Shown piece after piece: positions 45,385 through 47,857 of a stretch of DNA of 64,000 nucleotides; the first letter of the stretch is position 1, and each line of letters starts with the position of its first letter. Source of the DNA: Escherichia coli (GTDB lineage Bacteria; Pseudomonadota; Gammaproteobacteria; Enterobacterales; Enterobacteriaceae); NCBI RefSeq assembly GCF_013122565.1, contig NZ_CP053258.1; one strand, 5' to 3'. Both the position numbers and the translations under genes were made by a program. Below the pieces are notes generated by a model. The model saw only the letters and a list, made by a program, of their open reading frames with translations, searched no databases and was not told the origin of the DNA.

Positions 45385-45666
45385 TCAGTTAAGAATGGTC
45401 CGGTAGCGGCGATAATTCTGTTCATCAGAATGCCAGTCCTGATTCAGTACAGGGTGACGCTCATCAGCCGGACATACGGGCCAAAAACTGTCCTTACGGC
45501 GTTCAGCAAACACGGCCAGCACACCGGGAATATCCTGTACTTCACTACCGGTATACGTCTCAGCACTGCCGTGCCAGCGGTACTTACCGGTGCAGAACGG
45601 AAAAAGACGGGATGCAGGATGCTGTTGGTGAATACGCATGGCTTCACCACGGGTGATAATTTTCAT
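45385..45666 (-). CDS. YeeT/YkfH/YpjJ-family protein (DUF987), 93 aa
   Basis: Translation MKIITRGEAMRIHQQHPASRLFPFCTGKYRWHGSAETYTGSEVQDIPGVLAVFAERRKDSFWPVCPADERHPVLNQDWHSDEQNYRRYRTILN; conserved position between radC-like and antitoxin genes. Confidence 0.75.
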   Translation of the reverse strand: MKIITRGEAMRIHQQHPASRLFPFCTGKYRWHGSAETYTGSEVQDIPGVLAVFAERRKDSFWPVCPADERHPVLNQDWHSDEQNYRRYRTILN

Positions 45667-45728
45667 AATGGGATACCTCTGAAGACAGAAGATAAAAGTG
45701 AAAACAGGTGTGATGTGGTTGTGACGGG

Positions 45729-46220
45729 TTAAAGCAGACCATGTTCGGCAAAGGAGAAAACCTGGCTGCCACCGACTATCAGATGGTCCGGCACCCGGAT
45801 ATCAACCAGGGCCAGTGCCTGAACCAGACGTTCAGTAATAAGCCGGTCAGCCTTACTGGGTGTGACTTCACCGGACGGGTGATTGTGCGCCAGTATCACG
45901 GCAGCGGCATTGTGGCACAGGGCGCGTTTAATGACCTCCCGAGGATGAACTTCCGTACGGTTGATGGTGCCGGTGAAGAGGGTTTCACCGGCAATCAGCT
46001 GATTCTGGTTGTTCAGATACAGCACCCGGAACTCTTCCCGCTCCAGTCCCGCCATGTTCAGAATCAGCCATTCCCGTGCCGCACGGGTGGAGGTGAAGGC
46101 CACTCCGGGTTCATGAAGATGGCGGTCCAGGGTTTTCAGGGCCCGCAGAATGAGGCTGCGCTCGCCGGGCGTCATCTCTCCAGGCAGAAAGGAAAGTTGC
46201 TGCATTGTCCCTGCCTCCAT
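45729..46220 (-). CDS. RadC-like JAB-domain protein (YeeS/YkfG/YfjY family), 163 aa
   Basis: Translation ...HPREVIKRALCHNAAAVILAHNHPSGEVTPSKADRLITERLVQALALVDIRVPDHLIVGG... contains JAMM motif HNHPSG...S..D. Confidence 0.85.
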   Translation of the reverse strand: MEAGTMQQLSFLPGEMTPGERSLILRALKTLDRHLHEPGVAFTSTRAAREWLILNMAGLEREEFRVLYLNNQNQLIAGETLFTGTINRTEVHPREVIKRALCHNAAAVILAHNHPSGEVTPSKADRLITERLVQALALVDIRVPDHLIVGGSQVFSFAEHGLL

Positions 46221-46700
46221 TCAGTCGATGATGCGCATAATGGCGCTGCATTCCGGATGCTGCAGGGCGTAATCCCGCAGCCGGTAATAATGGACCGTCA
46301 TGGCATAACACTCCGTACGACAGGCGTGATGACTGTACGTCATCAGACAGGCGGCAATGCCGGCGGCTTCCGGGCTCATTTCAGCGCGGTTACCGTTCAT
46401 GGCATTGAACAGTACCCATGTTTCGTCATCATCGTCATCCGGTTCGGGTGCCATAAATGCCCCACCGTTGTTCAGGGTGTACAGATTCCAGATACCACCG
46501 CAGTAGTCTTCACACAGACGGTCCATCCAGCCGAAGACACGGGGCTCCAGGGTCACCCATTGTGGAATGAGGCCAAAATACTGCGGCCAGAAGCTGATGC
46601 GCTGTTCATCAGGGATGAGGGTGGCAACAAGTCGGGACTGGTCATTCTCTGGTGCTGTGGTTGAAGAAAGAGCAGTTGTGTTCTGAGAAGCGATTTTCAT
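46221..46700 (-). CDS. Antirestriction protein (ArdB/KlcA-like, YfjX/YafX family); start uncertain (ORF extends to 46772)
   Basis: Translation MKIASQNTTALSSTTAPENDQSRLVATLIPDEQRISFWPQYFGLIPQWVTLEPRVFGWMDRLCEDYCGGIWNLYTLNNGGAFMAPEPDDDDDETWVLFNAMNGNRAEMSPEAAGIAACLMTYSHHACRTE...; stop abuts radC-like start. Confidence 0.8.
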   Translation of the reverse strand: MKIASQNTTALSSTTAPENDQSRLVATLIPDEQRISFWPQYFGLIPQWVTLEPRVFGWMDRLCEDYCGGIWNLYTLNNGGAFMAPEPDDDDDETWVLFNAMNGNRAEMSPEAAGIAACLMTYSHHACRTECYAMTVHYYRLRDYALQHPECSAIMRIID

Positions 46701-46793
46701 GAGTGAAATCCTTACAATGTGTATAAATGAGAGGAAATAAAGGCCGGGGGCTGACAACATCACGTTCATCACTGACCGTGAGACCCGGTAATA

Positions 46794-47039
46794 TCAGGGA
46801 TGAATGATATTCGGCTGAAATTCCGGACAGCCGTACGCGTAATCGTTCCGGTCACAGACGGATGGCCAGATGCCATTGCCTGTACTCAGTCTGCACAGAC
46901 TGAGTTCTCCGGGACGGTAAAGCAGACGGGTACACCAGGCGCACAGGTCATCATCAGAAATGGAACGACACCCCGGCAGCGCCTCCGGGGCGTCGGGTGA
47001 TTCTGGTACCTGAATCACGCCTTCAGGGACAGGCTGCAT
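46794..47039 (-). CDS. Small Cys-rich hypothetical protein (81 aa from ATG; GTG start at 47078 gives 94 aa)
   Basis: ORF ...MQPVPEGVIQVPESPDAPEALPGCRSISDDDLCAWCTRLLYRPGELSLCRLSTGNGIWPSVCDRNDYAYGCPEFQPNIIHP; ATG overlaps DUF932 stop (TGATG), consistent with translational coupling. Confidence 0.5.
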   Translation of the reverse strand: MQPVPEGVIQVPESPDAPEALPGCRSISDDDLCAWCTRLLYRPGELSLCRLSTGNGIWPSVCDRNDYAYGCPEFQPNIIHP

Positions 47040-47857
47040 CAGCGCAGGCTCTCCAGCAGCGTTTCTGCCATCACCCACAACGCCCGGTTGAGCTTAATAT
47101 CGGTGTCGATGCTGTGAATGGCACGGGTGTGGATACGTTTTCCTCTGGCACTGCGACCGGAAATCCCGCCTTTCAGCATATTCTCCTGGATGGTCTGATA
47201 AGCACTCCACAGGTCCATACCGTAATCCTCCCTGCGTCGTGGCGTCAGAATGTCGGCGGTGGTGACGGGCTGATGTTCGTCACCATAACGGTAAGTCAGT
47301 GCCGCCTGTGCCAGCGCCTGGCGTGCCGGTGGCGGCAGGACCAGCGACTGCATGGCATCACGCTTCTCCTCTATCCGGTCAAACACGCCCACCACCTCGT
47401 AAGCCCCTTCAATGACTCTGTCCACCACATTTCCCCGGTGCGGAACACGCACTTCCCCCAGAGACTGACCACAGACGCACCCGTTCTGACACACAAATCT
47501 GAAGTAACCCGGCAGCATCTGGTAGCTGGAGGTACCGTCATGGGAGTTCAGCAGGATGATTTCAGGGACATGCTGTCCGTTTATCTCCCCGTCACGGCGC
47601 AGACGCAGCATGTGTTTGGTGTATCCCCGGCGGCCCGAGTCGCGCACTCGGGTCTGGCAGGCGAAAAAGGGCTGAAAACCTTCCCGCTGCAGGCTTTCCA
47701 GCACGATGATGGTGGGGATGTACGCGTAGTTTTCGCTTCTGGAGGTGTGTTTGTCTTCCCCGAATACGCTGGGGACGACCTGCATTAATTCTTCTTGGGT
47801 CAGTGGGCGGTCCCGGCGTATCTGATTAATCCGTCCGAAGCGACTGGCTAATCGCAT
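47039..47857 (-). CDS. DUF932/UPF0380-family protein (YfjQ/YafZ-like), 272 aa
   Basis: Translation MRLASRFGRINQIRRDRPLTQEELMQVVPSVFGEDKHTSRSENYAYIPTIIVLESLQREGFQPFFACQTRVRDSGRRGYTKHMLRLRR...; typical component of CP4-like islands. Confidence 0.8.
   Translation of the reverse strand: MRLASRFGRINQIRRDRPLTQEELMQVVPSVFGEDKHTSRSENYAYIPTIIVLESLQREGFQPFFACQTRVRDSGRRGYTKHMLRLRRDGEINGQHVPEIILLNSHDGTSSYQMLPGYFRFVCQNGCVCGQSLGEVRVPHRGNVVDRVIEGAYEVVGVFDRIEEKRDAMQSLVLPPPARQALAQAALTYRYGDEHQPVTTADILTPRRREDYGMDLWSAYQTIQENMLKGGISGRSARGKRIHTRAIHSIDTDIKLNRALWVMAETLLESLR

Follow-up and report, generated by a model that had tools for sequence, protein, structure and literature searches.

An ArdB-containing gene array at the attachment-site end of a CP4-type genomic island in Escherichia coli

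The anti-restriction gene block analysed here is almost certainly the integrase-distal conserved module of a genomic island of the CP4-57/CP4-6/CP4-44 type, inserted at serX in the window (the whole stretch of 64,000 nucleotides of Escherichia coli DNA under study). The block is already known, as the well-known gene set at the end of "CP4-type" E. coli islands. It occurs in 4861 of 5426 complete E. coli genomes (median of 3 copies, up to 17), and a block present in about 90% of complete genomes is real but ordinary. Its places in E. coli (n=13,529) are chromosomal in 13,522 cases and plasmid-borne in 7; we therefore regard it as the distal module of P4-integrase islands, not as a literal plasmid leading region. 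The first-pass annotation had called the block typical of the leading regions of mobile elements. That description holds for the gene families, which are common to the leading-side arrays of IncF and IncL/M plasmids, and fails for the locus, which is a chromosomal tRNA-Ser island.

Five open reading frames lie head to tail on the minus strand, in the order DUF932, an 81-aa Cys-rich gene, ArdB, a RadC-like JAB gene and DUF987. All five were recovered where they had been placed at first pass, and profile searches upheld every family assignment, with Pfam matches far above chance (E-values of 1.4e-50 for DUF932, 3.2e-37 for Antirestrict, 3e-45 for RadC and 1.5e-36 for DUF987). The proposed end of the block at 45385 did not survive. 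On the same strand, at spacings of -4 to 89 nt, the array continues with a type IV antitoxin of the CbeA/YeeU type (44996..45364; PF06154, 1.1e-52), a CbtA/YeeV-type toxin (44532..44906; PF06755, 7e-61), a DUF5983 gene that overlaps the cbtA stop by 4 nt (44080..44535; PF25638, PF19419) and, last ahead of the attachment site, a methyltransferase-related DUF4942 gene (43193..44038; PF13708, 1.8e-70) that also matches phrog_6263 'DNA methyltransferase' (1e-18). Across the array every gene is on one strand, with intergenic gaps of -4 to 93 nt; transcription runs towards the att junction, and the unit ends at the tRNA-Ser attachment site. A consensus scan placed terminator-like hairpins at both ends of the DUF932-to-DUF5983 stretch, both on the minus strand, one just upstream of DUF932 (47895..47922; a 12-bp stem followed by a T run) and the other just after DUF5983 (44066..44092). 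Further upstream, again on the minus strand, are an HTH+WYL regulator (49845..50552; PF13280, PF08220; PADLOC WYL 3.6e-18), a conserved partner of the block whose position is kept in Klebsiella and Mixta loci, and a YeeP/YfjP-type GTPase (50767..51678; PF01926, 6.5e-16), which opens the conserved module. In the annotation of relatives the latter appears as 'GTPase family protein'.

The surroundings are those of a CP4-type (P4-integrase) distal module. The block lies beside the 3' end of tRNA-Ser(GGA) (serX; 42956..43043, plus strand; ARAGORN, Rfam), and the last 14 nt of this gene, CCCCCTCACCGCCA at 43030-43043, are the att core. In PapRG-06-5, whose island is the closest complete relative, the 14-nt repeat adjoins a tyrosine integrase at the far, opposite end of the island, and this integrase is split by an IS3; the integrase end of the island studied here falls outside the window. 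The gene order GTPase ... DUF932 ... ArdB-RadC-DUF987-CbeA-CbtA is shared with other E. coli strains and with other genera: block order is conserved beside tRNA-Ser/ghrA in other strains, and also in Yersinia, Klebsiella and Mixta. Prophage status was considered and rejected: matches to phage records number just two, and one of these is a 3.2-kb fragment that carries no annotation.

ArdB is the sole characterised member of the block; for a nearly identical island copy, both a crystal structure and assay results exist. The 159-aa ArdB/KlcA anti-restriction gene of the window (46221..46700, minus strand) matches PF03230 over the full profile (positions 1-92; 127 bits, with the cut-off at 25) as well as phrog_10132 'anti-restriction protein'. 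Its product is identical to PDB 2WJ9 at 144 of 157 residues (92%, E=5e-101), and matches the KlcA NMR structure 2KMG at 2e-21. The conserved ArdB/KlcA fold, on which the first-pass reading of this gene depended, thus follows by homology from the 92% full-length identity to crystallised 2WJ9. That structure is of ArdB (ORF14) from PAI II of uropathogenic E. coli CFT073, which is likewise island-borne; the C-terminal 136 residues of the window protein are 97% identical to it, whereas its first 23 residues are divergent, with an indel of 2 residues. Type I restriction is relieved in vivo by ArdB of CFT073, YafX and YfjX (PMC2836571). The window gene is ArdB as firmly as can be said from sequence, and its activity is predicted.

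The RadC-like gene (45729..46205, minus strand; 158 aa) is of the short JAB/JAMM kind (YeeS/YfjY/YkfG type), with 153.5 bits against PF04002 and a match to PDB 2QLC at 4e-25. The HNHPSG that had been noticed by eye is indeed there (45887-45870), within a full E..HxHx7Sx2D JAMM motif that is intact as E..HNHPSGEVTPSKAD at residues 74-120. Housekeeping RadC/YicR was ruled out: against the NF000642 equivalog model the protein scores 161.9 bits, below the cut-off of 180, and it aligns to model positions 88-211 only, the C-terminal half. Judged by these alignments, the gene is the short paralogue of islands and plasmids rather than chromosomal radC.

The window copy of the block is partly decayed, through a frameshift in DUF987 and the loss of DUF957. 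DUF987 (YeeT/YpjJ type; 45385..45666, minus strand; PF06174, profile positions 1-63 of 65) had been read as a gene ending at 45385; the family stands, and the frame reaching that end is a frameshift product. Alignment with intact copies reveals one extra T at 45483-45487, where a run of four has grown to five (T4 to T5); 31 out-of-frame residues now stand in place of the final 11, and the intact ORF of about 73 aa is missing from this copy. PGAP calls DUF987 'frameshifted' also in strain PapRG-06-5, which is 99.7% identical and whose complete island is 99.6% identical. Relative to PapRG-06-5, a deletion of about 297 bp (blastn against L001; annotation) removes the 3' end of DUF5983 together with the DUF957 gene that follows.

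Two cryptic elements of K-12, CP4-57 (yfjQ ... yfjX-yfjY-ypjJ-yfjZ-ypjF) and CP4-6 (yafZ ... yafX-ykfG-ykfH-yafW-ykfI), match the window in families, order and orientation, the common order being DUF932, ArdB, RadC-like, DUF987, CbeA-type antitoxin and CbtA-type toxin. There too the block occupies the att-proximal, integrase-distal end of a P4-integrase island inserted at a tRNA or tmRNA gene (PMC5371832; PMC2836571), and the five homologous genes at this end of CP4-6 and CP4-57 look like a single operon with the toxin-antitoxin (TA) pair (PMC5371832). The window island differs in its insertion at serX, its frameshifted DUF987 and its deleted DUF957. In it, moreover, DUF932 precedes ArdB with nothing but the small coupled Cys-rich gene in between, whereas on the K-12 maps other genes presumably intervene.

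Plasmid arrays share the families in other combinations. In the leading region of the K. pneumoniae IncF plasmid pJX10-2, DUF932 is followed by DUF5983, adjoining oriT and an SLT gene and co-oriented with psiB/psiA; Salmonella pSLT (IncF) has a DUF932 remnant at the same place, in a region that also holds a KlcA/ArdB-type gene, DUF905 and ssb. Unlike the window island, the IncF plasmids possess oriT, relaxosome and T4SS, and at this site they are without the small Cys-rich gene, RadC, DUF987 and cbeA/cbtA. DNA identity between the window and IncF plasmid copies of DUF932 is about 65-70%, over part of the gene only. An IncL/M (pOXA-48-like) plasmid carries ssb - klcA - DUF1380 - DUF4942 - RadC(JAB) - DUF3085. 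This resembles the window in its co-directional Antirestrict, DUF4942 and RadC-like JAB genes, but it is without DUF932, DUF987 and the type IV TA pair, and the partner of RadC is DUF3085, an adjacency noted in PMC12826799.

With respect to function, we lean cautiously towards the view that the array as a whole is an establishment-and-retention cassette, and we hold the identity of the block and this mechanism, taken jointly, to be probable. The demonstrated step, on which the window protein would draw, is that ArdB of this type shuts down type I restriction in vivo, through an indirect route other than DNA mimicry; it would thereby shield the unmodified DNA of the element when a new host is reached. 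Processing or marking of nucleic acid is the probable task of the RadC-like hydrolase and of the DUF4942 protein, a relative of methyltransferases, and loss of the island would carry a penalty imposed by CbtA/CbeA. True leading regions of plasmids make use of these block families, a hint that the families also act at entry, and leading regions are enriched in anti-defence genes (PMC11541004). Early anti-defence action after DNA entry, as proposed for such blocks at first pass, is something we infer for every block gene except ArdB. Counter to the establishment-and-retention view, the consensus scan turned up no sigma-70 promoter ahead of DUF932, transfer machinery is not recognisable on the island, and ArdB is active in vivo only. 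No block protein matched a PADLOC defence model (only the upstream WYL regulator and, weakly, the GTPase did), and for DUF932 the PDB sequence and profile searches returned chance-level matches only, with no structural relative that hints at function. In K-12, moreover, the homologues are weakly transcribed, and three upstream genes left TA toxicity unchanged (PMC5371832).

Alternatively, the block may serve mainly the resident state, with CbtA/CbeA and DUF5983 stabilising the island or aborting phage infection, ArdB dampening the host type I enzymes by restriction alleviation when modification lags, and the remaining genes acting as TA accessories. The array is contiguous and apparently co-transcribed with the TA pair, genomes carry many copies that are under purifying selection in chromosomes, and DUF5983 is consistently linked to cbtA (PMC10790755; bioRxiv 10.64898/2026.06.09.728211). 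We nonetheless consider this account unlikely: the three upstream K-12 genes neither neutralised nor altered toxin activity (PMC5371832), plasmid DUF932 and DUF5983 occur without cbtA/cbeA, and the known phenotype of ArdB is the protection of incoming DNA. It is very unlikely that the window copy is an inert, decaying remnant, with ORFs recognisable only through recent arrival of the island. DUF932, the small gene, ArdB, RadC, CbeA and CbtA are intact in the window, all tested block genes have dN/dS of 0.07-0.31 over short and long distances, and even the frameshifted DUF987 keeps 63 of 65 profile positions. These observations stand against the lesions in DUF987, DUF957 and DUF5983, the IS3-split integrase of the near-identical island, and pseudogenes in other copies (DUF932 frameshifted in L004, DUF5983 with internal stops), all of which would fit such decay.

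Another possibility is that the block is a literal leading region. On this view, islands of the CP4 type would belong among the integrative mobilizable elements, with their oriT close to the att end; once excised, an island would be passed on as ssDNA by a helper plasmid, and the array would come in first and be expressed early. One hallmark of leading regions, a co-oriented array rich in anti-defence and establishment families, is present: the array faces the element end, as leading-region genes face oriT in IncF plasmids, and DUF932, DUF5983, ArdB/KlcA, RadC, DUF4942 and DUF905 are common to plasmid leading regions. This island type also has a YagK/YfjJ protein, weakly similar to rolling-circle Rep/G2P nickases and hence a candidate relaxase, and the WYL regulator is conserved upstream. 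A second hallmark, an adjacent oriT with relaxase and T4SS, was not found: the F-type nic motif gave no match at up to 3 mismatches, two IncF oriT regions matched the island in blastn at chance level only, and the annotation of the complete, near-identical PapRG-06-5 island lists neither a relaxase nor a coupling protein nor a T4SS. Between 43000 and 52000 there is no long hairpin like that of the Frpo ssDNA promoter, only a single 14-nt inverted repeat, and Rfam gave no match. Given also that the full block is almost never plasmid-borne in E. coli, we judge a literal leading region quite unlikely.

As a finding the block carries little weight, being present in about nine of ten E. coli genomes and annotated by standard pipelines. 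Its interest lies in DUF932, DUF987, DUF5983, DUF4942 and the small Cys-rich protein, which are abundant, under purifying selection and common to chromosomal islands and plasmid leading regions; their functions would show how very common E. coli islands establish or persist. DUF932 (YfjQ/YafZ-type; 47039..47857, minus strand; 272 aa) is preceded by the SD sequence TAAGGAG, matches PF06067 over its full length (172.6 bits, profile 1-227 of 227) and has relatives numbering 5345 representatives. The DUF932 stop (TGA) and the start (ATG) of the 81-aa Cys-rich gene (46794..47039, minus strand) have an A in common; the TGATG overlap reported at first pass is confirmed, at 47041-47037.

Copies from E. 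coli, Yersinia, Klebsiella and Mixta retain the 1-nt overlap (TGATG or TAATG) and the synteny. Homologues of the small protein form 183-239 clusters, all of about 80-90 aa and all from Enterobacterales, with the conserved core RSxSDDDLCAWC..YRPGE.SLC. Searches of Pfam, NCBIfam and PHROG gave no match and those of the PDB chance-level matches only, and an AF2 model built from 24 sequences was of too low quality (pLDDT 62) to be compared by fold. NCBI names the gene product 'antirestriction protein'; we found no family, structure or paper behind this label and so take it as a name derived from proximity. Against distant copies the gene has dN/dS of 0.17-0.30; values above 1 among close E. coli copies are not interpretable, because they depend on just 1-2 synonymous changes. 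It is conceivable, and in our view very doubtful, that DUF932 and the small protein provide a two-protein anti-defence or DNA-entry function, with CP4-type islands mobilised by helpers and the array a true leading region, possibly WYL-induced by ssDNA. The modestly new result is that the small Cys-rich protein represents a real, unnamed Enterobacterales family on which purifying selection acts and whose gene is in every case coupled to DUF932.

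The block lies on the E. coli chromosome, in a genomic island that follows tRNA-Ser(GGA) (42956-43043; ghrA at 41784-42761). In PapRG-06-5, a near-identical strain whose island matches that of the window at 99.6% over 21 kb, the element spans about 32.9 kb, with the tRNA at one end and an IS3-split tyrosine integrase adjoining ycdU at the other. The 3'-terminal 14 nt of the tRNA gene (CCCCCTCACCGCCA, window 43030-43043) form a direct repeat with a copy beside this integrase (12669-12682 of stretch L002) and bound the island. Because this repeat recurs beside the integrase at the far end, the block occupies the island end distal to the integrase; its transcription runs towards the att junction. 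An integrase far from the intact tRNA reverses the usual layout, in which the two are adjacent.

All five genes reported by the first-pass annotation are present on the minus strand, and its limits correspond exactly to the start of DUF932 (47857) and the end of the DUF987 open reading frame (45385). DUF932 (47857-47039, 272 aa), preceded by the Shine-Dalgarno sequence TAAGGAG, is first in transcription order. Next comes a small Cys-rich gene (47039-46794, 81 aa), joined as had been described through TGATG (47041-47037): the A that closes the DUF932 TGA stop is also the first base of its ATG. ArdB (46700-46221, 159 aa) lies 93 nt further on, followed after 15 nt by the RadC-like JAB gene (46205-45729, 158 aa) and after another 62 nt by DUF987 (45666-45385). 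Pfam E-values for DUF932, ArdB, RadC-like and DUF987 (1.4e-50, 3.2e-37, 3e-45 and 1.5e-36) are such that chance matches are not an issue. The HNHPSG motif noticed earlier sits at 45887-45870, within a complete JAMM motif (E..HxHx7Sx2D). The proposed extent, however, was too short: CbeA antitoxin (45364-44996, 20-nt gap), CbtA toxin (44906-44532, 89-nt gap), DUF5983 (44535-44080, gap of -4 nt) and DUF4942 (44038-43193, 41-nt gap) follow on the same strand. Terminator-like hairpins, identified on this strand by consensus match only, flank both ends of the DUF932-DUF5983 segment, directly before DUF932 (47922-47895) and directly after DUF5983 (44092-44066), and suggest a single transcription unit.

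This block is a known feature and an extremely common one. Its arrangement is that of the att-proximal ends of the cryptic K-12 elements CP4-6 (yafX-ykfG-ykfH-yafW-ykfI) and CP4-57 (yfjX-yfjY-ypjJ-yfjZ-ypjF), as described previously (PMC5371832), and the gene order is the same in Yersinia intermedia, Klebsiella pneumoniae and Mixta. The 2.5-kb block was matched in 4861 of 5426 complete E. coli genomes, 4339 of which hold at least 80% of it, with a median of 3 places per genome and up to 17. These places are chromosomal in 13,522 cases vs 7 on plasmids. Just 17 PLSDB records contain at least 80% of the block, several of them Mb-sized and resembling mislabelled chromosomes, and only two phage records matched.

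The earlier ArdB/KlcA assignment withstood comparison with solved structures: the protein is identical at 144 of 157 positions to ArdB of CFT073 (PDB 2WJ9, E=5e-101) and matches KlcA (2KMG) at 2e-21. For the CFT073-island ArdB and for K-12 YafX and YfjX, Serfiotis-Mitsa et al. showed relief from each of the four type I families in vivo, but EcoKI was not inhibited in vitro, so that their action is indirect, with no DNA mimicry (PMC2836571). On the strength of near-identity to tested proteins, the window ArdB can be taken to relieve type I restriction, and CbtA/CbeA to constitute a type IV toxin-antitoxin pair. The RadC-like protein matches the housekeeping RadC model over its C-terminal JAB half only, below the model cut-off, and is the short mobile-element form. 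RadC-type JAB domains have been predicted to target nucleic acids or nucleotides rather than ubiquitin-like tails (Iyer et al., PMC5512222). DUF4942 has relatives in a phage DNA-methyltransferase family, and no PADLOC defence model matched the block proteins. In a Klebsiella contig (L007), a type I specificity subunit gene (Methylase_S, 11491-12255) lies near the end of an ArdB-containing block, and an anti-restriction gene there neighbours a restriction system.

We infer that the whole array may serve as an establishment-and-retention cassette of CP4-type islands. The first-pass annotation had considered it typical of leading regions, where anti-defence genes are enriched (PMC11541004). Its observation was confirmed, and at the level of families the comparison holds. 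In the K. pneumoniae IncF plasmid pJX10-2, the order psiB-psiA-…-hok-…-relE/HTH-DUF932-DUF5983-SLT-[oriT]-traM, with all leading genes oriented towards oriT, has DUF932 and DUF5983 in common with our unit; pSLT retains a DUF932 remnant at the corresponding place, plus a KlcA/ArdB-type gene, DUF905, ssb and psiB/psiA; and an IncL/M plasmid carries ssb, klcA, DUF4942 and RadC as one co-directional array. Partial similarity to the block occurs in about 4800 PLSDB plasmids, of which 4055 are conjugative; in the rows sampled, the matching piece was usually the DUF932 gene and in some cases RadC. The occurrence of DUF932 and DUF5983 both at island ends and in oriT-proximal IncF leading regions is modestly new. 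At this locus, by contrast, the comparison is not supported: in the near-identical complete island of PapRG-06-5 nothing is annotated as a relaxase, coupling protein or T4SS, and searches gave no F-type nic site, no similarity to IncF oriT regions, no Frpo-type long hairpin in 43000-52000 and no Rfam match. A literal leading region of a helper-mobilised island is thus unlikely. We keep it in view because the block faces the element end, as expected if an oriT lay there, and because this island type encodes a protein, YagK/YfjJ, that weakly resembles rolling-circle nickases.

Two other rivals to the cassette reading are that the block serves the resident state or is an accessory of the toxin-antitoxin pair, and that the window copy is an inert remnant. 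Bearing on the latter, the DUF987 family assignment stands, but the open reading frame is a frameshift product: relative to intact copies, a T4 run has become T5 (45483-45487, +1 T, minus strand), so that a 31-aa out-of-frame tail stands in for the 11 C-terminal residues of the normal protein (…GPYVRLMSVTLN/Y). PapRG-06-5 (99.7% identical) has the same insertion, marked 'frameshifted' by PGAP; it could be a genuine shared mutation or a homopolymer sequencing error common to both assemblies. Relative to PapRG-06-5, the window also lacks about 297 bp (window ~44040-44100 vs L001 18355-18660, the corresponding stretch), so that the gene for DUF957 is missing and DUF5983 has lost its 3' end. The DUF5983 gene of PapRG-06-5 has an internal stop. 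Although single copies, including that of the window, carry lesions, dN/dS values of 0.07-0.31 for DUF932, ArdB, RadC, CbeA and CbtA, against both 96%-identical and 58-76%-identical copies, show that the block families are maintained by selection.

The small protein whose gene is coupled to DUF932, conserved and unnamed, is the other modestly new point. It has no match in Pfam, NCBIfam, PHROG or PDB, and its gene lacks PGAP annotation in PapRG-06-5. It is a real gene, given its homolog clusters (183 by single-sequence search, 239 by profile search), a (nearly) invariant core (R-S-x-S-D-D-D-L-C-A-W-C…Y-R-P-G-E-x-S-L-C…W-P-x-x-C-D…G-Y-A-x-x-C-P), dN/dS of 0.17-0.30 against distant copies and constant position: at all loci examined, the final base of the DUF932 stop doubles as the first of its start codon (TGATG or TAATG), and ArdB comes next. 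Among the matches listed, homologs are restricted to Enterobacterales (Escherichia, Salmonella, Klebsiella, Enterobacter, Citrobacter, Serratia, Yersinia, Raoultella, Yokenella, Mixta) and span 47-131 aa, mostly 80-90, the shorter and longer being partial or frameshifted calls; just one, a 116-aa ORF, has a Pfam domain, namely Antirestrict, which belongs to the adjacent gene. We found no evidence behind the name 'antirestriction protein' in some records. The cysteine pattern suggests metal binding, which the predicted structure (pLDDT 62) is too poor to judge. A GC-rich hairpin (11-bp stem) with a T-rich tract inside the gene (46966-46995, minus strand) scored as terminator-like; it is probably incidental and maps to the protein's variable N-terminal portion.

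Upstream on the minus strand, a YeeP/YfjP-type GTPase (51678-50767) and an HTH+WYL regulator (50552-49845) are conserved partners of the block that recur at its loci in E. coli, Klebsiella and Mixta; the regulator might couple block expression to a nucleic-acid signal. The GTPase weakly matches PADLOC LeoBC (6e-9). Several small or secreted-looking hypothetical proteins also lie upstream, among them minus-strand proteins of 312 and 136 aa (47947-48885, 48951-49361) with signal-peptide-like N-termini and no Pfam or NCBIfam match; another serX island (L004) has an Ag43/Cah autotransporter in their place. A 48-aa ORF (49695-49841, minus strand), 'hypothetical' in relatives, has two CxxC pairs (zinc-ribbon-like) and a sub-threshold match to a Cas12f1-like TNB domain (E=0.004). 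Distinct from the conserved backbone of the island is low-GC cargo (32-44%, 52000-62000) with IS66 remnants, a plus-strand chaperone-usher fimbrial operon (55993-61190) and an AraC-type regulator (61578-62399).
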